This document shows, in pieces, positions 1,370 through 11,662 of a stretch of DNA of 12,229 bases; position 1 is the first letter of the stretch; every line of letters starts with the position of its first letter. The DNA comes from Candidatus Krumholzibacteriota bacterium. Its GTDB lineage: Bacteria > Krumholzibacteriota > Krumholzibacteriia > LZORAL124-64-63. The position numbers and the translations under genes were made by a program. The notes under the pieces were generated by a model. It had not been told where the DNA came from. It was given only the letters and a program-made list of their open reading frames with translations, and did no database searches. Location: contig JBDLKA010000099.1 of NCBI GenBank assembly GCA_039714075.1, forward strand, positions 1 to 12,229. The letters are read 5' to 3'.

Positions 1370-1398
1370 ATCCTTCCGAATGGGGGCGATAAGGCTGG

Positions 1399-1407
1399 AT
1401 TATGCCA
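1399..1407 (-). promoter_or_regulatory. Possible extended -10 promoter (TG-G-CATAAT) for the ATP-grasp/rSAM operon
   Basis: Minus strand reads TGGCATAAT ~30 nt upstream of the 1369 start; no convincing -35. Confidence 0.3.
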
Positions 1408-1487
1408 CGGCCATGCTGATTTCACTAGGGGAATCCCTTCCCGACATGAAAGCTGCCAATCAGATAGATGGTTGCGGTATTTAGGAG

Positions 1488-1516
1488 TTGACCGGTCAGT
1501 GGCGCTCGGCTACTCT
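1488..1516 (+). promoter_or_regulatory. sigma70-type promoter for precursor gene 1
   Basis: TTGACC (1488-1493) - 17 nt - TACTCT (1511-1516). The -35 overlaps a perfect palindrome TGACCGGTCA (1489-1498). Confidence 0.6.
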
Positions 1517-1523
1517 GCCTCGA

Positions 1524-1605
1524 TTCGCCCACTGATACCCTATTGCAACCGGGACCCGACACCTATCTGCGGGGTGCTCGAAGGCGACTCGCCGGCCAAC
1601 GGGCC
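1524..1605 (+). promoter_or_regulatory. Conserved, putatively structured 5' leader, copy 1
   Basis: Shares TTCGCCCRCTRA and GACACCTATYTGCGGGG...TCGAAGGCGACTCGCCGGCC-loop-GGCC with 1831-1913. Followed by SD AGGAGG (1617-1622). Confidence 0.55.
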
Positions 1606-1629
1606 ATTTATCTTTTAGGAGGAAGTTTC

Positions 1630-1722
1630 ATGAAATTCATCGTCAAACCTCTCGGCAAAAAAGGCAGACTGGACCACACCATGTGTGCGAAGTGCTCCGA
1701 GGATCCCCGCTTCTGCTGGTAG
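1630..1722 (+). CDS. Putative RiPP precursor peptide 1 (30 aa, MKFIVKPLGKKGRLDHTMCAKCSEDPRFCW)
   Basis: Strong SD AGGAGG 7 nt upstream, ATG..TAG, paralogous to 1938-2027 with synonymous changes and an in-frame 1-codon indel. Next to an rSAM maturase and an exporter. Confidence 0.88.
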   Translation: MKFIVKPLGKKGRLDHTMCAKCSEDPRFCW

Positions 1723-1737
1723 GGAACCATGGTAGTG

Positions 1738-1767
1738 GCGCGGCGGCATCTTGCCGCCGCGTTTTTT
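1738..1767 (+). terminator. Intrinsic terminator after precursor 1
   Basis: Stem CGCGGCGGCA (1739-1748) / TGCCGCCGCG (1752-1761), loop TCT, followed by TTTTTT (1762-1767). Confidence 0.85.
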
Positions 1768-1796
1768 ATAATCTTCAATCCCCCTTCAGAATACCG

Positions 1797-1825
1797 TTGA
1801 ATTGAATCCCGGATGGGACTAGAAT
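1797..1825 (+). promoter_or_regulatory. sigma70-type promoter for precursor gene 2 (and possibly the exporter genes)
   Basis: TTGAAT (1797-1802) - 17 nt - TAGAAT (1820-1825). Confidence 0.65.
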
Positions 1826-1830
1826 CCCCC

Positions 1831-1913
1831 TTCGCCCGCTAAGGCCCCCTGCCCCATAGCGATGACACCTATTTGCGGGGCTGGTCGAAGGCGACTCGCC
1901 GGCCTTTTCGGCC
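1831..1913 (+). promoter_or_regulatory. Conserved, putatively structured 5' leader, copy 2
   Basis: Homologous to 1524-1605. Followed by SD GGGGAG (1925-1930). Confidence 0.55.
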
Positions 1914-1937
1914 TATCTCAAATTGGGGAGATTACTT

Positions 1938-2027
1938 ATGAAATTCGTCGTGAAACCCAAGGATATCAAAGGTAAGCGTATTACCATGTGCGTGAAATGC
2001 TCCGAGGATCCCCGCTTCTGCTGGTAG
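1938..2027 (+). CDS. Putative RiPP precursor peptide 2 (29 aa, MKFVVKPKDIKGKRITMCVKCSEDPRFCW)
   Basis: SD GGGGAG 7 nt upstream. Same N-terminal MKF(I/V)VKP and C-terminal TMCxKCSEDPRFCW as precursor 1. Confidence 0.88.
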   Translation: MKFVVKPKDIKGKRITMCVKCSEDPRFCW

Positions 2028-4965: not shown

Positions 4966-7098
4966 TCATTTAACCAGGGTCAACCGACCGGTCCTGAATT
5001 CATCATCCACCTGCAAACGGGAAAAATAGACACCCGCCGCGACGGCGCCGCCCTCGTTGTCCCGGCCATTCCAGAATTCCCGGTGCGGGCCCGCTCCGAG
5101 ATATCGATCCTCCAAGAGGGTGCGTACCAACCGGCCTGCCAGGTCATGAATGCGCAGGCTGACCCGACCGGACTCCGGCAGGGTGAAACGAAGGCCGGTA
5201 CGGGGATTGAAGGGATTGGGCGCCGCCGGATGCAGTACCGGCCCGCCCGCTGCCAGGACGGGCAATCCCTCGACCGCGCTGACCCCGGCTTCGATCTCGT
5301 CAATGAACCAGACCTTGTTCTCCGGCGTGATGGCGATGTGCTCCTGGTTGGCGGCCGGAAAGTAGACCTGGTCGAAGGCGGTCTTGTCCAGCAGGGCGGG
5401 ATCGCCGGCGATGTCGAAAAACGGTCCGACCCCGACCAGGGCCAGGGCGCTGATCGTGGGGATGAAACAGTGGTTGTCGTGCAGGGCCACGATGTCGCCG
5501 TAGGGCACCGCGGTCGTGTCCATCTGGGCCATGGAGGCCCGGTAGCCCCCGGGGGCGCTGTCCCAGGGAAGCGTTCCGCCGACGGTCACCGTCAGGTAGG
5601 TGTCCGGCAGGGGCCAGATAAGGTTGATCATGCCGTCGAAGATCACCTGGGTCCCCCCATCGGGAACCGCCCACACGTTGCCGTCGATGTCCGCCAGCAG
5701 GCTGCGGTACTCGTAGAAAATCAACTGGTCGCCCGCGGTGAAACCCTGGTCCAGGCCCGCGCCGCTGCCGTTGGCGACGCCCACCAGCCGGGGCGCCGCG
5801 GGCCAGTCGCCCACGCCCGCCAGGTCGGCCTGGAAAGCCGCGAACAAGGGATCCGCTCCGGCGACGGTGCCCGCCGTGGACAGGTGATGGTAGAGCAGCA
5901 TCTGCCGCGCCGCGGGCGTGTTCAGGCGCGACAGCAGGAAGGCGGCATCCTCGGATTCACCCTGGAAAAAATCGAGCCAGTGCTGCAGGCCCAGCGGGAT
6001 GTTGGCCCCGCCGTGGGGCGCGTCGAAGGAAATGAAGGTGCGCACCTGGTGTCCGGTCCCCTGCTGCTCCAGCCAGGCCAGGGCGTAACGGGACACCAGG
6101 CCGCCCATGCTGGCGCCGACCACGGCCACGGTGCGGCCGGGAGCGATGGCCGCCTGCACCTGGCCCAGCAGTTCGGTCAGCACGAAGGCGTTGCGCTGGA
6201 TCGGTTCGGTGGCCTCGGTGAAGTCGAGCACGACGGCGTCGTAACCGTCGCTCCTGAGATCCTCCAGCATGTTTTCCTGATTGAGCAGATCGTACAGCAC
6301 GGGCCAGTCCATGGTGTTGTCCAGGTCGAAGCCTTCGACCACGATCGCGGGATTGGTCAGCGCGGTCCGGCCGGGCGCCAGGTACACGTAGGCCAGTCCG
6401 GTCGCGGCGGAGTCTGCGAAGGCTTCGGAAGCAGTAACGGCCCAGGTCTCATGGGGAGTCGGGGTCACCAGCCGCTTGACGTTCAGGGCGGTCGTGGCGG
6501 TCAGGGTCCGGCCGTCGATCAAGGTGGCCTTCAGCACGGGGTGTTTGACGCCGGTCGTGGAGTACGACACCGGGAAGGGAACGGAAAACGTCAGTTCGCG
6601 CGGCCCGCCGCCGTCGTCCGGATCGAGGGTCATGCTCGCCAAACCCGCGGTTCGGTGGGTCAGGAAATCCGCGGGTTCTAAAATGAACTCGGTCGCGGCA
6701 CCGTGGAACAGCTCTTCACGCAATACCGCCAGCGCGAATACCTCGGCAGCGGCGGTTTGTCCGGATTCCGTCATCCGGTCGTAGGTTGCGTGAACCAGGG
6801 CGAGGGGAACCCGGTGGGGCGAAGCCCCGGCCAGGGTTACGTTCTGCAGGTGGCGGGGCGCCGGCCAACCCAGATTTTCCTCGGCGGCCCGCCGCAGCTC
6901 GTGGACTGTCTGGCGCCAGCGTGCAAGGTCACCGGCGGCAGCGGTCGCGGAACCGTCCAGGTCCTCCAGATGGGCCAGGGGCACAACTCGGTCCACGAGA
7001 ATTCCATTGGGAGTTGTTTGGGGCAGCGGCGGGAAAGCCAGGGCGGCCGGAATCATGATCAGCAATAAAAGGTGCAAAAGGACAAAAAGTGACTTCAT
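4966..7098 (-). CDS. Secreted alpha/beta hydrolase (esterase/lipase-like) with C-terminal FlgD-Ig/T9SS-like sorting domain
   Basis: Signal peptide MKSLFVLLHLLLLIMIPAALA (start 7098 preferred; 7110 possible). Motifs VVEGFD, nucleophile elbow GASMGG, and DAPHGGANIP. C-terminal PNPFNP...IHDLAGRLVRTL...WNGRDNEG...GVYF...LTLVK. Confidence 0.88.
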   Translation of the reverse strand: MKSLFVLLHLLLLIMIPAALAFPPLPQTTPNGILVDRVVPLAHLEDLDGSATAAAGDLARWRQTVHELRRAAEENLGWPAPRHLQNVTLAGASPHRVPLALVHATYDRMTESGQTAAAEVFALAVLREELFHGAATEFILEPADFLTHRTAGLASMTLDPDDGGGPRELTFSVPFPVSYSTTGVKHPVLKATLIDGRTLTATTALNVKRLVTPTPHETWAVTASEAFADSAATGLAYVYLAPGRTALTNPAIVVEGFDLDNTMDWPVLYDLLNQENMLEDLRSDGYDAVVLDFTEATEPIQRNAFVLTELLGQVQAAIAPGRTVAVVGASMGGLVSRYALAWLEQQGTGHQVRTFISFDAPHGGANIPLGLQHWLDFFQGESEDAAFLLSRLNTPAARQMLLYHHLSTAGTVAGADPLFAAFQADLAGVGDWPAAPRLVGVANGSGAGLDQGFTAGDQLIFYEYRSLLADIDGNVWAVPDGGTQVIFDGMINLIWPLPDTYLTVTVGGTLPWDSAPGGYRASMAQMDTTAVPYGDIVALHDNHCFIPTISALALVGVGPFFDIAGDPALLDKTAFDQVYFPAANQEHIAITPENKVWFIDEIEAGVSAVEGLPVLAAGGPVLHPAAPNPFNPRTGLRFTLPESGRVSLRIHDLAGRLVRTLLEDRYLGAGPHREFWNGRDNEGGAVAAGVYFSRLQVDDEFRTGRLTLVK

Positions 7099-7145
7099 GA
7101 CGACCCCCATCCCCGAAAACGAACTCGCTGCGCCCCAAAAAGGTC

Positions 7146-7715: not shown

Positions 7716-9839
7716 TCAGCGCGCCAGGGTGACTTTCCCCTGCAACTGCCAGGAGGAATCCCCGCCGCCGTCGCTTGCCCGACCCCGGCAGGTGACCCGG
7801 TAGAGGTAGGTTCCCGAGGGAGCCTGCTGCCCCTGGGAATCAATCCCGGTCCACAAAAATTCCCTGGGCCCCGCTTCGGCGGAAGCCAACTGTCGGGACA
7901 GGATCCTGCGGCCCTGCACGTCGAAAATTTCCACCAGGTCCTGCGTGGTCGTGGCGGCTTCCCAACGGAACAGGCAACGCGGATTGAAGGGATTGGGGTA
8001 GGCCGGGTAAAGCCGGACGGGCGCCTTGGCGAGGTCGTCGTTCGCGGGCTGTGACTTGGCAACGGCCATGTCGTGCAGCAACCACCGCTCCGGATCCAGA
8101 TAAACCGCGGTCACGTCGGTGTCCAGGGGGATCACGAATTCCTGGTTCAACTGGTCACTCATGACGGTGACCACGGTGTTGAGTCCCGTTCCCACCAGCT
8201 TGAATTCCACCGGTACACGATAGGGCAGATCACCCTGGACAAGATCGGGCACCTGCACCTGGTTCAGCTGGATCCGGAACTGGTTGGTCCCTTCCTGCCA
8301 GTCGTTGTTCCAGGCCAGATCGAACACGGGGTACGTTGTCCGGTACAGCCACTGGTCGAAGAACCACTGGAGATCCTGGCCCGAGACATCTTCGCAGGCC
8401 TGCCGGAAATCGTCGGAATGGGCGTTGCCGAAACGCAGCGCGGGGTTGTTCAGATAGGCGGTCAGGGCGGCGAAAAAGTCGTTGTCACCCAGCTGGCGCC
8501 GCAGCATGTGCAGGACCCAGGCGCCCTTGTGATAGGCGATGGTGCGGAAGTAATACGGGGCGTAGGACGACGCCGAATCCCTGATCAGCGAATCGGTGGG
8601 GTAGCCGTGTCCCCAGTCGTGCTGGTTCATGAAGCTGATCAACCCGGTCGGTCCCCACCGGTGTTCCGCCCACAGGGCCTCGACATAGGTGGCGAAACCT
8701 TCGTTGAGCCAGATGTGGGTCCAGTCCTCGGGAGATATCATGTCGCCGAACCACATGTGGGACAACTCGTGGATCAGGACGGTTTCGAACTGACCGGTCC
8801 CGGTGATGAGCACGTTGCCGTAGGTCACCGCGGTGGGGTGCTCCATGGCCTGGTCCCACTGGCAGAGCACCATGCCGTAGGGCTGGCCCGTGAAGGGGTA
8901 GGGGCCGAAAAGGTCGCCGCAGAAATCCAGCATTTCCGGCAGGACGGCGAAATCCGCCTCGGCCTGCGCCGCCAGCTCGGGAAAAACAAAATGGTTCAGC
9001 TCGATCTGCCCCGCGCTGCCGGAGTAGGTGTCATTCAGTTCGGTGTATTCCGCAACCGCCAGGCTGACCAGATAGGTCGGGATGGGCAGGGGTTCCTCCC
9101 AGGTGAAGGTGCGACCCTCCTGGCCCACGAAATTCCCGTTCGAGACTCCGGTCATACCGGCCGGCACGCTCATCTTGGTGATGACCGAGGCCTTGTCCCG
9201 GGGATCGTCCTTGCAGGGCCACCACGAGCGGGCGCTCCAGGGTTCACTGACGGTGGCGACCACGGGCCGGCCCGCGTCCGACAGGTCCACGCGGTAGCCG
9301 AATATGTCGCCCGGTTCCGGCTGGCCCCAGAACTGGACTTCGATCATGCCCACCTGCCAGGGTTCGATGGGGGTGGACAGTCTCGCGGTAATCTTGTTGT
9401 CCCGGTGGAGGTAGGCGACATGGGCGGTGTAGGGAAAGGTGATGCTCATGCCGGAGCAGGTCATACCGTCAGCGTAGTCCAGGACGATCCGGTTCACCGG
9501 CTGTTCCTGGGCCTGGATAATGACGGTGACCGTACCGGCGATCCAGCCGTAATCCGGGTCGATCTGCAGGTCCAGTTTGTAATGGAGAACATTGAAGAGG
9601 TCCTGCAGGGGATCGGGAACGGGCATGCCGGTGGTCGAGAGGACTTCGGCTTCGGCGGCGGGGCTTTTGCCTTCGATCAGGGAGACCTGGGGCCAGACCT
9701 CGGGCATGGGCTGGACGGTTGCATCCCCGATTGGTGATTGGGCAAAAAGGGAAACCGGAAACAGCAGGACAAACAGCAGCACCGCCCAAACGCGGGGCGG
9801 AGCCAGGAACTGGAAGGGCGATACCAGTTGTCGAACCAT
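7716..9839 (-). CDS. Secreted M1-family zinc aminopeptidase with C-terminal FlgD-Ig/T9SS-like domain
   Basis: HELSHMWFG...WLNEGFATY (HExxH-x18-E), exopeptidase motif variant QAMEH, ARSWWPCKD, YHKGAWVLHMLR, C-terminal YPNPFNP...WTG...GTYLYR. Signal peptide ...VWAVLLFVLLFPVSLFA. Start set at ATG 9839 (approximate), not the track's 10703. Confidence 0.9.
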   Translation of the reverse strand: MVRQLVSPFQFLAPPRVWAVLLFVLLFPVSLFAQSPIGDATVQPMPEVWPQVSLIEGKSPAAEAEVLSTTGMPVPDPLQDLFNVLHYKLDLQIDPDYGWIAGTVTVIIQAQEQPVNRIVLDYADGMTCSGMSITFPYTAHVAYLHRDNKITARLSTPIEPWQVGMIEVQFWGQPEPGDIFGYRVDLSDAGRPVVATVSEPWSARSWWPCKDDPRDKASVITKMSVPAGMTGVSNGNFVGQEGRTFTWEEPLPIPTYLVSLAVAEYTELNDTYSGSAGQIELNHFVFPELAAQAEADFAVLPEMLDFCGDLFGPYPFTGQPYGMVLCQWDQAMEHPTAVTYGNVLITGTGQFETVLIHELSHMWFGDMISPEDWTHIWLNEGFATYVEALWAEHRWGPTGLISFMNQHDWGHGYPTDSLIRDSASSYAPYYFRTIAYHKGAWVLHMLRRQLGDNDFFAALTAYLNNPALRFGNAHSDDFRQACEDVSGQDLQWFFDQWLYRTTYPVFDLAWNNDWQEGTNQFRIQLNQVQVPDLVQGDLPYRVPVEFKLVGTGLNTVVTVMSDQLNQEFVIPLDTDVTAVYLDPERWLLHDMAVAKSQPANDDLAKAPVRLYPAYPNPFNPRCLFRWEAATTTQDLVEIFDVQGRRILSRQLASAEAGPREFLWTGIDSQGQQAPSGTYLYRVTCRGRASDGGGDSSWQLQGKVTLAR

Positions 9840-9899
9840 CTCGATAAAAAATCCCGGGTGGTTTGATTGCCGTCCAAGGATGATTGGTCGGAAAAACAT

Positions 9900-9928
9900 A
9901 CCATATGAGAGCGAAAAATCCTCATCAA
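9900..9928 (-). promoter_or_regulatory. Possible sigma70 promoter for the M1 peptidase
   Basis: Minus strand TTGATG (9928-9923) - 17 nt - TATGGT (9905-9900), with A/T tracts upstream (9943-9981). Confidence 0.4.
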
Positions 9929-9991
9929 TTCCATTCTGGGTGAAAAAGTGGATGAAAAAGCGGGAAAAAAACGGCCGAAAACAAAGCCGAT

Positions 9992-10867
9992 TCAGCTGGT
10001 TTTCGGGGTCAGATTCGCCACCCGGCCCAAACCCCATTTGGTGGCAAATGCCTCTATCAGAATGGCTTCGGCGCCGGAATACCGCAGATCCTCGATTTCC
10101 AGGTCGCAGGGGGCCTCGTGGTCCAGGTTCGCCAGTTTCCAGCTGAGCCGGGCGTTGGCGCGGTCTTTCTCCAGCTTGCCCCGAAGGCTTTTCGCGCCCC
10201 GCACCGGCAGGGATTCCACCCGGTCGAGGTTGGCGTAGATCGCGTCCAGGTCCGGAAATGCGGCCAGCAGGGCGGTCGCGGCCTTGGGTCCGACGCCGCG
10301 CACCCCGGGAATGTTGTCCACCGCGTCGCCGGTCAGGGCTAGATAATCGATGATCTGGGAAGCCTTGACCCCCATCCTTTCCGGCACCCCGGCTTCGTGC
10401 CACCAATCGTCCTTGGCCAGATTGTAGATCTTGACTCCGGGGCCAAGAAGCTGGGCCAGATCCTTGTCCCCCGAAACGATGACCACCTCGTGGCCCGCGG
10501 CGCGCAGGCGCCGGGTCAGCGAGGCGATCAGATCGTCGGCTTCGAAGCCGGGCGTCATGGCGGTGGCGAACCCCATCTTTTCCGTCAGTTCCCGGCACAG
10601 GTCGAACTGGGGCACCAGGTCCTCGGGCGGCTCGCCGCGGTTGGCCTTGTAGGCGGGATAGAGTTCGTTGCGGAAGGTCTTGGACCCGGCGTCGAAACAG
10701 CACGCCACCATGGCGGGTTGGTGGTCGCTGAGAAAACGCTGCAGTGTCATTCCCAGGCCGAACACGGCGTTGATGGGAGTCCCGTCCGGCGCGGACATGC
10801 TGCGCATCCCGAAAAAACTCCGGAAGACGTAGGCCATGGTGTCGATCAGGTAGACGGTATCCGGCAT
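9992..10867 (-). CDS. Stand-alone 5'-3' exonuclease / flap endonuclease (Pol I N-terminal domain homolog)
   Basis: 291 aa from MPDTVYLID. Motifs NAVFG, CFD, FRNELYPAYKANR, GFEADDLIASL, SGDKDLAQL and H3TH GDAVDNIPGVRGVGPKAA. No polymerase domain follows. Confidence 0.93.
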   Translation of the reverse strand: MPDTVYLIDTMAYVFRSFFGMRSMSAPDGTPINAVFGLGMTLQRFLSDHQPAMVACCFDAGSKTFRNELYPAYKANRGEPPEDLVPQFDLCRELTEKMGFATAMTPGFEADDLIASLTRRLRAAGHEVVIVSGDKDLAQLLGPGVKIYNLAKDDWWHEAGVPERMGVKASQIIDYLALTGDAVDNIPGVRGVGPKAATALLAAFPDLDAIYANLDRVESLPVRGAKSLRGKLEKDRANARLSWKLANLDHEAPCDLEIEDLRYSGAEAILIEAFATKWGLGRVANLTPKTS

Positions 10868-11106
10868 GGTTGGTGGATCCTTGCTGCTGGCTTTTCCCGC
10901 CGGCGGCCTTGCTGACCGTCCGGGGTATCGGATAGGGGCGGCATCGGTTTTCCAGCGCATTCTAACCCATTCCAACCGAAAGGTGTGATTATTTGAAAAT
11001 CGTCCTCTTTATTGGACAAAATTCCGATTGAAGAATGTGGGTTTTTTACGGTTTTCAATTTTTTAATTCATTGTGAAAACACAAGTTATTGCAATTTTAA
11101 GCCATC

Positions 11107-11122
11107 GGGCATGCCGGTTGCA
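11107..11122 (+). promoter_or_regulatory. sigma54 (-24/-12)-type promoter
   Basis: GGGCATG-CCGG-TTGCA versus consensus TGGCACG-N4-TTGCW. GG at 11108-11109 and GC at 11120-11121 are correctly spaced. AT-rich upstream region with an IHF-like CAA-N4-TTG at 11082-11091. Confidence 0.55.
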
Positions 11123-11173
11123 ATATCATGGCCAAGACCCCCTGATACGGGTAGTCCATCAAGGAGGCCGATC

Positions 11174-11662
11174 ATGAAAACGAACAAAACAACCATCAGG
11201 ACCAGGATCATGACCAAAGTCAGGACCAACAGGAAACGCTTGAGTCTGGTCAGCCTGCCGGTTCTTGCTCTATTGCTCACCATCGGAGCCGTGGATGAGG
11301 CCCAGGCCCGGATCCGCGTCAAAGCCACGGTGAGAACTCCCTACGGCCGGGTCCAGGTCGATAATGGGCCCTACCATCACACCCGGGTTTATCGCCAGGA
11401 GCTTCCGGTCCGGTATTATCGCGATCATTACCGCGTCACCAAGCGGGACCGTAAGATCGCCCGCCGTCTCGGCAGCTTCACGGGCGTTCCCAAGCGCGAG
11501 CTGCTTCAACTCAGGAAGCAGGGTTACACCTGGGGTGAGATCGGACGCTGGTTGGACGTGCCCCGCAAGGTGGTTCGCGCCGCGAAAAGCGGGAAGCGCT
11601 GGAAACGATTCATGAACCGCCACCACAGGAATCACTATTGCGAAGTGGGTGGGCGATGGTAA
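11174..11662 (+). CDS. Highly basic secreted hypothetical protein (162 aa)
   Basis: SD AAGGAGG at 11161-11167. Signal-peptide-like h-region LSLVSLPVLALLLTIGA ending in AQA. Arg/Lys/His/Tyr-rich mature part with a helical GYTWGEIGRWLDV motif. Confidence 0.8.
   Translation: MKTNKTTIRTRIMTKVRTNRKRLSLVSLPVLALLLTIGAVDEAQARIRVKATVRTPYGRVQVDNGPYHHTRVYRQELPVRYYRDHYRVTKRDRKIARRLGSFTGVPKRELLQLRKQGYTWGEIGRWLDVPRKVVRAAKSGKRWKRFMNRHHRNHYCEVGGRW

Follow-up and report, generated by a model that had tools for sequence, protein, structure and literature searches.

Closest described systems

The window analysed here, a stretch of 12,229 nucleotides (nt) that makes up one whole contig (C99) of a Candidatus Krumholzibacteriota bacterium, carries two short tandem genes, P1 and P2, which lie head to head with an operon of predicted peptide-maturation enzymes. 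Comparison with related loci makes it likely that P1 and P2 encode precursors of a ribosomally synthesized peptide with post-translational modifications (RiPP) and are the substrates of the divergent operon, with a hybrid product combining a Thr-Glu ester and Cys thioethers as the most likely outcome. The assignment as RiPP precursors rests on solid evidence, and the crosslink chemistry is what we infer.

Among described systems, Clo7bot and the TIGR04463 group share with the present locus short tandem Cys-containing peptides encoded beside a radical S-adenosylmethionine (SAM) maturase with a SPASM domain. The initial annotation, made from the letters of the window and their open reading frames (ORFs), had suggested a resemblance of the two peptides to Clo7bot precursors. 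The likeness is real in the leader, where the first 8-29 positions of the Clo7bot peptide model match MKF(I/V)V, but it goes no further: P1 scored 13.4 bits against a cut-off of 31 with peptide model TIGR04333 (E 0.052, residues 1-19 only), P2 gave no match, and the maturase reached 301 of the 600 bits required. When 28 family peptides were compared with TIGR04333, 9 matched, at 9.6-14.7 bits (cut-off 31) and all in the leader. Membership of Clo7bot (peptide TIGR04333, maturase TIGR04334, sister family TIGR04463) was rejected, all scores being below the cut-offs. Unlike Clo7bot, the peptides described here have a core of 3-4 Cys in the arrangement T-x-C-x-x-C-x-E-x-P-x-x-C, and two ATP-grasp proteins and a PrdB-like protein are added to the gene set. 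A literature search for 'Clo7bot' found no paper.

The ATP-grasp side of the locus is closest to plesiocin, a group 2 graspetide, and its synthetase PsnB, which makes Thr-Glu side-chain esters. Among solved proteins, PsnB is the nearest relative of the active ATP-grasp ligase and also the best structural match of ORF300, the product of the first gene of the operon, and a Thr-Glu pair is common to both systems. The plesiocin core, in contrast, consists of TTxxxxEE repeats, the system has no Cys, radical SAM enzyme or second, degenerate ligase, and the leaders are unrelated. Two ATP-grasp paralogues also occur together in microviridin biosynthesis (MdnB and MdnC, both among the Foldseek matches of ORF300); there both ligases are active, whereas ORF300 has lost ATP- and Mg-binding residues.

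The radical SAM side resembles thermocellin and its synthase CteB, the SCIFF-type ranthipeptides and PapB (freyrasin), in all of which a radical SAM/SPASM enzyme acts on Cys-containing cores. In thermocellin, Thr is a thioether acceptor. The maturase of the present locus scores weakly against these families (with the SCIFF maturase model, 73 bits where 425 are required; with PapB, 115 where 340 are required), leader and core differ, and those systems lack an ATP-grasp ligase. The ranthipeptide acceptors named in PMC8939145 are Thr, Asp and Asn, the same residue types that are the conserved neighbours of Cys here.

Both enzyme types have been noted together before. Loci combining ATP-grasp, SPASM and HlyD genes with conserved Thr/Ser, Asp/Glu and Cys are treated as predicted RiPP clusters in PMC8939145. 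The Bacteroidetes 'branch 5' of that paper and the 'group 14' graspetides of PMC13097080 share with the present locus the enzyme combination and the HlyD/ABC export genes, and none of these loci is characterised as far as the two texts say. The 'branch 5' precursors of PMC8939145 differ in having a MKKL-type leader and GG motifs. 'Group 14' of PMC13097080 may include the P1/P2 family. The core and leader strings of the family do not occur in any of the 11 supplementary files of PMC8939145, and four core strings did not occur in the literature searched. A dependence of the graspetide synthetase on a partner protein is described for rosaritide in PMC13097080, and the present locus is similar in that a further conserved protein is required by the graspetide ligase or occurs along with it; the rosaritide partner, under the heading 'PPIase-associated' in that text, is of another kind, whereas here it is a dead ATP-grasp paralogue. 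P1 and P2 thus appear, on sequence grounds, to represent an undescribed precursor family. The predicted RiPP cluster in which it occurs is of a kind that is recognised but uncharacterised, and its unusual components are the dead ATP-grasp paralogue and a PrdB-like CxxC protein.

The P1/P2 family and its gene cluster

Both ORFs were re-read and are intact, exactly as first annotated (Table 1). P1 is composed of the leader MKFIV, a spacer, the core TMCAKCSEDPRFC and the tail W, and P2 of the leader MKFVV, a spacer, the core TMCVKCSEDPRFC and the same tail. The conserved ends and the in-frame indel reported for the linker are present as described: six of seven residues of the N-terminal 7-mer and 13 of 14 at the C-terminus are identical, and the P2 spacer differs from that of P1 and is one codon shorter. 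Shine-Dalgarno sites (AGGAGG for P1, GGGGAG for P2) lie 7-8 nt 5' of the ATGs. An alternative start for P1 at TTG 1543, giving a 59-aa ORF, was ruled out, since both the conservation shared by the family and the ribosome-binding site point to ATG 1630 as the start. P1 and P2 are the only two copies in their own genome (E 2e-18 and 1e-9; next best 0.62).

To keep the core from biasing the outcome, only the leader motif was used to collect related peptides from 13 related loci. Of the 46 matches obtained, 42 had the pattern T.C..C.E.P..C, one carried Val at the Pro position, another was truncated by a stop and the remaining two were spurious; the three core Cys were present in every intact copy. 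A total of 49 distinct precursor genes was assembled over 18 loci. This set was selected by the leader motif and CxxCx6C spacing, and only its non-Cys columns are therefore informative; the leader pattern found throughout, M-(K/R/Q)-(F/Y/I)-(I/V)-(V/I), is likewise the selection filter. The general layout is a leader M-K-F-(I/V)-V, a variable spacer, a 13-residue core T-x-C-x-x-C-x-E-(D/N)-P-R-x-C and a variable tail, and the division into leader, spacer and core that had been proposed from P1 and P2 alone holds across the 49 genes, in which the first five residues and the 13-residue core are kept and the spacer varies in length. Within the core, Thr (49/49; codons ACG, ACC, ACA and ACT) and Glu (49/49; GAG in 34, GAA in 15) are the only invariant hydroxyl and carboxyl residues and stand seven residues apart, followed in conservation by Pro (48/49, four codons), Asp/Asn (47/49) and Arg (44/49). 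The position occupied by Phe in P1 and P2 holds F in 32 genes, A in 11, W in 4, G in 1 and D in 1, and a lone Trp follows the last Cys in 6 of the 49. Between 15 and 33 residues precede the core Thr, the tails are 0-11 residues long with 39 different ones among the 49 genes, and 28 of the 49 have a fourth Cys upstream of the core. Precursors in the loci studied are 29-49 residues long, with up to 12 diverse copies per locus, and all 42 members checked have a GGAG-type site 6-10 nt upstream of the start.

A profile built from 42 members was searched against 1.84 billion representative proteins and retrieved 113 clusters at E <= 1e-3. Peptides no longer than 100 aa account for 110 of them. The full motif is present in 102 of these 110 clusters, and in the cores of the matches Thr is found in 112/113 and Glu in 113/113; a lone terminal Trp is seen in only 4 of 109 matches. 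Three long matches were discarded as unrelated, namely P0075 (a 662-aa tandem repeat), P0132 (which looks like a translated repeat array) and P0130 (a 4747-aa Cys-rich protein, of which the first 100 residues were inspected). The conservation of P1 and P2 is far beyond chance. No Pfam family covers the peptides and no NCBIfam model scores above its cut-off, and a new model would therefore be easy to build from the alignment. There is no conserved GG motif in the family alignment, and the ABC exporter has no peptidase domain; the double-glycine leader class was rejected.

Several variants were recorded. Four peptides from other metagenomes (P0024, P0073, P0090 and P0125) have two complete cores in one chain of 65-74 aa, and three (P0091, P0124 and P0136) have long Cys-rich spacers with 7-8 Cys. 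The second precursor of the same-genus genome G126 (L025 8070-8159 = L030 7523-7594) has a GTG start and a TAA in place of the invariant Glu codon, with DPRVCW still in frame past it, and is either a decaying paralogue or an assembly error. It is the single nonsense copy among 50 recognised, so that the frame-disrupted homologues that had been named at the outset as grounds for abandoning the precursor interpretation were not met as a pattern.

The precursor genes are always found in one conserved cluster, which contains ORF300, the radical SAM/SPASM enzyme, the PsnB-like ATP-grasp ligase, the PrdB/GrdB-like CxxC protein, the HlyD protein and the ABC exporter. ORF300 is the first gene of the maturation operon, on the minus strand and diverging from P1. 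The cluster of the window's own genome is split over contigs C99 and C146, the latter carrying the ATP-grasp and PrdB-like genes and the end of the radical SAM gene; that the two contigs join is suggested by the same-genus locus in G126, where the four genes are contiguous and 45-74% identical. Within the phylum of the window, 208 genomes were searched with P1. Noise made up the greater part of the 69 matches at E <= 10, and clear tandem copies were found in five other genomes (G126, G038, G037, G114 and G072, the last with six copies), giving 6 carriers among the 208. Gene order is the same in all five loci as far as the contigs reach. One of these loci, L033 (= G037:C2), comes from a metagenome-assembled genome titled 'Patescibacteria group bacterium' in the public record, a label that looks wrong because the genome is placed in the phylum and class of the window's genome.

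With ORF300 as bait, 10 loci were obtained from species-representative genomes of Krumholzibacteriia, Acidobacteriota (including Polarisedimenticolaceae and Terriglobia) and Eisenbacteria, together with 11 metagenome contigs. ORF300, the radical SAM enzyme and the ATP-grasp ligase are present in all 10 genome loci, as is HlyD (truncated in L034); ABC is present in 9 and the PrdB-like gene in 8. The gaps are in L031, which lacks ABC and the PrdB-like gene where the contig ends, and L039, which lacks the PrdB-like gene in 16.9 kb. The same synteny is seen in the phylum-wide search and in the metagenome contigs. Precursors accompany 9 of the 10 genome loci, and the tenth genome has one on another contig: a single precursor (L055, G211:C84 11575-11673) lies near a contig end in the genome whose L037 locus has none. 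In 401 sampled Acidobacteriota genomes, no carriers were found beyond the 4 already known. The distribution is patchy over at least three poorly studied phyla.

A comparison of 16 sequence pieces revealed no other real gene family common to more than five. The exception is a protein of ~400 aa with an HExxH (HELAH) motif in four Acidobacteriota loci, encoded just after the ATP-grasp gene (L032 ~11200-12400, also L036, L039 and L047); it is a candidate leader peptidase and is absent from the window's cluster. In L035 (2123-5314), the ORF300 frame lacks a stop and continues for 1064 codons, through the radical SAM gene, which is in another frame, and into the ATP-grasp gene. A GC-rich shadow frame could account for this, as could an assembly error or the loss of a stop.

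Maturation enzymes and the predicted product

The presence of a radical SAM/SPASM enzyme in a peptide-maturation cluster with the precursors, assumed in the initial annotation, was confirmed by motif and domain matches. The enzyme's gene starts with an ATG at 473, where it overlaps the stop of ORF300 upstream, and runs off the contig, its C-terminus being found on G000:C146 (7197-6787). The CxxxCxxC motif is present as CNFRCDYC in the window translation, and the part on C146 contains the SPASM domain (TIGR04085, 59.7 bits against a cut-off of 27) with its complete motif, G-x4-C, then C-x2-C-x5-C-x3-C and a further C. The gene is whole in the same-genus locus L025, where it encodes 452 aa, and this full-length orthologue aligned end to end, over residues 2-438 and 6-412, with the two models TIGR04463 (313.6 bits, cut-off 525) and TIGR04334 (301.4 bits, cut-off 600); the own-genome fragments reached 114.2 bits (window) and 75.9 bits (C146) in the same test. 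The families that follow are CefB, FlmE/OhkG, geopeptide and PapB. Among solved structures, CteB, a thioether synthase, is the closest (5wgg, 3.3e-12). A search of the literature on OhkG/FlmE/CefB gave nothing relevant among the matches listed. Judged by its nearest families and the CteB relative, thioether formation, one of the chemistries suggested at first, stays the best guess for this enzyme.

The profile of the ATP-grasp ligase finds its best match among solved proteins in PsnB (7drm, E 1.4e-36), over positions 4-309 or nearly the whole length, with weaker matches to RimK (1e-9 to 1e-11). The invariant residues of the ligase include the Lys of LKP, the Lys of W-I/V-x-K-G, an acidic Asp, and the Glu and Asn of L-E-C-N-S-x-P-F-F. 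The cluster therefore has what is expected of a graspetide locus in its genes, a PsnB-type ATP-grasp enzyme with intact catalytic residues kept in 10/10 genome loci, and in its core, a conserved Thr donor and Glu acceptor. The early remark that the peptides contain residue types joined by graspetide synthetases was borne out as regards Thr and Glu, which are invariant and are accompanied by an ATP-grasp ligase and a degenerate paralogue in the cluster; Asp, Lys and Ser, which had been listed with them, are not invariant.

ORF300 has no Pfam family match. A profile search in which 8000 candidates from a collection of 5.8 billion proteins were scored identified 22 proteins, including ORF300 itself, at E <= 1e-3, all at <= 1.7e-62; none has a precomputed Pfam domain, and the sole source name is 'hypothetical protein'. 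The AlphaFold2 model (mean predicted local distance difference test score 88.2, predicted template modelling score 0.87) was compared using Foldseek, and the top matches were PsnB (7drp, E 1.6e-14, template modelling score 0.72), AMdnB, PruB and RimK. Alignment of ORF300 with the active ATP-grasp ligase of the cluster using hhalign gave 97.5% probability. In this alignment, replacement or deletion has removed the two ATP-binding lysines, two of the three Mg ligands and, through a gap of 15 residues, the Gly-rich loop. ORF300 is thus probably a non-catalytic pseudo-enzyme partner, a paralogue of the graspetide ligase, as the predicted structure suggests.

The PrdB/GrdB-like protein has an invariant C-x-x-C and scores 85 bits against a cut-off of 300 with TIGR04483 and 22.5 against 65 with TIGR01918. 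It has no solved relative by sequence, Foldseek returned nothing at E <= 1e-3, and the VIA wide search gave generic Rossmann-like alpha/beta matches with Z up to 8.9.

In the maturation proposed here, the leader would dock on the N-terminal domain of the radical SAM enzyme, on the ATP-grasp proteins, or on both. The active ATP-grasp ligase would then join the hydroxyl of the invariant Thr to the carboxylate of the invariant Glu, forming an eight-residue omega-ester ring that would enclose the first two Cys. This is the most economical task for the ligase because the two residues are the sole invariant hydroxyl and acid and the nearest ligase joins Thr to Glu. The radical SAM/SPASM enzyme would form sactionine- or ranthionine-type thioethers between carbon atoms and at least one of the three Cys sulfurs, for which the last Cys and the Asp/Asn four residues before it form a plausible pair. 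ORF300 may act as a non-catalytic partner or scaffold and the CxxC PrdB-like protein as a thiol-redox helper, and the HlyD/ABC pair directly downstream of P2 would export the product. The leader may be kept, or may be removed by a protease encoded elsewhere, as none is encoded in the cluster.

Some points weigh against this ester-thioether product. With no curated family does the radical SAM enzyme reach the cut-off, and its reaction type is therefore extrapolated. If Thr is instead the thioether acceptor, the ATP-grasp ligase would have no invariant nucleophile, and the CxxC of the peptide could instead bind metal or form a disulfide. There is neither a leader peptidase nor a GG motif, so the boundary between leader and core is undefined. 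One of 50 family copies has a TAA at the Glu codon and one has Val for Pro. In the window's own genome, moreover, the cluster lies on two contigs whose join is deduced, and ~170 residues of the radical SAM enzyme are missing from the assembly.

A more far-reaching form of the same proposal is held tentatively and is, on balance, doubtful. It would make the family a new RiPP class in which one core carries both the Thr-Glu ester and Cys thioethers, the dead ATP-grasp protein serves as partner or chaperone, and the CxxC protein reduces the peptide, possibly at the invariant Glu-(Asp/Asn)-Pro. Both accessory proteins would then be of kinds not seen before in RiPP pathways, and the ATP-grasp partner would be obligatory.

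The alternative that survives best, though unlikely, is a purely radical-SAM sactipeptide or ranthipeptide with up to three thioethers, in which the ATP-grasp proteins have a task other than macrocyclisation of side chains, for example RimK-like C-terminal addition of residues, or immunity. The three invariant Cys do lie near conserved Thr, Glu and Asp/Asn that could serve as acceptors, the maturase is nearest to Cys-rich-peptide maturases and CteB, and a RimK-family model matches the ATP-grasp ligase (TIGR00768, 1.3e-14). The ATP-grasp profile, however, fits the macrolactone synthetase PsnB far better than RimK, Thr and Glu are exactly the pair used by PsnB, and the C-termini are hypervariable and therefore a poor handle for a C-terminal ligase.

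Less probable again, and quite improbable in our estimation, is that the peptides give rise to, or carry, a molecule with a redox or metal-binding role, such as a thiol- or metal-based cofactor or a metallophore, and not a secreted crosslinked peptide. SPASM enzymes also make peptide-derived cofactors, pyrroloquinoline quinone and mycofactocin among them, and the core CxxC with a third Cys, together with the invariant CxxC of the PrdB/GrdB-like protein, would suit such a role, but cofactor precursors are usually single-copy and conserved throughout, whereas in this family a locus may hold as many as 12 diverse copies, spacers and tails are hypervariable, and there is a dedicated HlyD/ABC exporter.

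An aromatic crosslink on the terminal F-C-W, triceptide-like cyclophane or Cys-Trp, was among the chemistries proposed initially, P1 and P2 both ending in these residues. This proposal did not hold up and is very improbable: it is unsupported because neither Phe (Ala in 11 of 49 genes) nor the lone Trp is conserved, and although the cyclophane families do appear in the radical SAM list, they are far down it (YhhB 62.6 bits against a cut-off of 445, AmcB 59.6 against 425, GrrM 44.7 against 310). A last alternative takes the ORFs to be untranslated, or to have arisen by chance, in a regulatory region that was duplicated. In its favour, the non-coding 5' box shared by the two units is as well conserved as the core, but this alternative is effectively refuted already by conservation across phyla, synonymous codon variation at invariant residues, ribosome-binding sites in 42/42 members and the 110 short-peptide clusters in an independent protein library.

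Genomic surroundings and significance

The features of the locus are listed in Table 1. The P1 and P2 units, of ~307 nt, form a tandem duplication with patchy conservation. Identity between the units is 93-94% in a 5' box of ~40 nt, 90% in the first 20 coding bases and 94% in the last 48 bases, with divergence in the spacer and in the surroundings of the ribosome-binding site. The 5' box, GACACCTATYTGCGGGG...GAAGGCGACTCGCCGGCC, is non-coding, lies ~30 nt upstream of each ribosome-binding site and is kept between the units as well as the peptide core, and a similar ACYTATYTGYGGGG string is found upstream of the same-genus precursor. Its predicted RNA fold is no better than that of shuffled sequences (z 0.34 and -0.84 for the two copies). 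It is probably a promoter, operator or 5' untranslated region element, and of these probably a promoter or operator because it has no significant RNA structure. The head-to-head layout around the intergenic region recurs in loci L025-L027 and L029. Four terminator-like sites were observed in 900 nt, against 1.0 +/- 0.9 in shuffled sequences. The only Rfam match in 1300-2200 was CsrB on the opposite strand, at 14.7 bits against a gathering score of 71, and it was taken as chance.

Table 1 Features of the P1/P2 locus in the window and on contig C146
Feature	Position	Strand	Basis or remark
Radical SAM/SPASM maturase, N-terminal 157 residues	3..473	-	TIGR04334 rSAM_Clo7bot 5.5e-33, TIGR04463 5.8e-28, below cut-off
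ORF300, putative degenerate ATP-grasp paralogue, 300 aa	467..1369	-	Structure match and hhalign
Divergent intergenic region, maturation operon (-) versus precursor/export genes (+)	1370..1629	.	Gene layout
5' box upstream of P1	1558..1597	+	Direct repeats D2 and D4, 93-94% identical
P1 precursor peptide, 30 aa, MKFIVKPLGKKGRLDHTMCAKCSEDPRFCW	ATG 1630 to stop TAG 1722	+	Intact ORF
Terminator-like hairpin and T-run after P1	1737-1763	+	12-pair stem, 9 GC pairs, then TTTTTT
Sigma-70-like site	1797-1825	+	Before the second 5' box
5' box, second copy, upstream of P2	1864..1904	+	Direct repeat, 93-94% identical
P2 precursor peptide, 29 aa, MKFVVKPKDIKGKRITMCVKCSEDPRFCW	ATG 1938 to stop TAG 2027	+	Intact ORF
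Terminator-like hairpin and T-run after P2	2044-2072	+	13-pair stem, GC-rich
HlyD-family membrane-fusion (periplasmic adaptor) protein, 360 aa	2132..3214	+	Pfam HlyD_3 1.3e-10
ABC exporter, 582 aa	3211..4959	+	Pfam ABC_membrane residues 29-296, ABC_tran 359-508; overlaps HlyD stop
ATP-grasp ligase, 315 aa	Contig C146		Pfam RimK 8.4e-07; TIGR04187 'ATP-grasp ribosomal peptide maturase' 2.5e-18
PrdB/GrdB-like protein, 274 aa	Contig C146		TIGR04483 5.2e-24, far below cut-off

The HlyD protein, the gene for which adjoins the precursors in other loci, also matches the NCBIfam models RND_mfp, type_I_hlyD and NHLM_micro_HlyD, all below cut-off. Orthologues of the ABC exporter in related loci are 56-77% identical; no N-terminal C39 peptidase domain is among its Pfam matches, the membrane domain beginning at residue 29.

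Three large secreted-type proteins are encoded beside the cluster (window 4966-7110 and 7716-10703, both on the minus strand, and L004 3151-4980 on the plus strand). They are esterase/lipase-like, M1 aminopeptidase and GH32-like, and each ends in a FlgD_ig or type IX secretion system (T9SS)-type sorting domain. Neither the esterase-like nor the GH32-like gene is conserved beside the cluster in other genomes, matches to the T9SS-type tail aside, and the M1 aminopeptidase formed no cross-locus cluster in the comparison, which was among the 16 sequence pieces only. A stretch of low G+C (0.42-0.47 at 10800-11250 of the window, ~0.65 elsewhere) lies between a 5'-3' exonuclease gene and a 216-aa ORF without a family match.

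Clusters combining ATP-grasp and radical SAM/SPASM enzymes have been predicted for more than 10 years, with no characterised product in the literature searched. The P1/P2 family is a compact test case for them and a good genome-mining lead, with defined precursors, a 13-residue core and six conserved genes, and its naturally diverse precursor arrays, with as many as 12 members in one locus, would reveal the tolerance of the enzymes. The family would also bring a putative pseudo-enzyme paralogue and a PrdB-like protein into peptide maturation.

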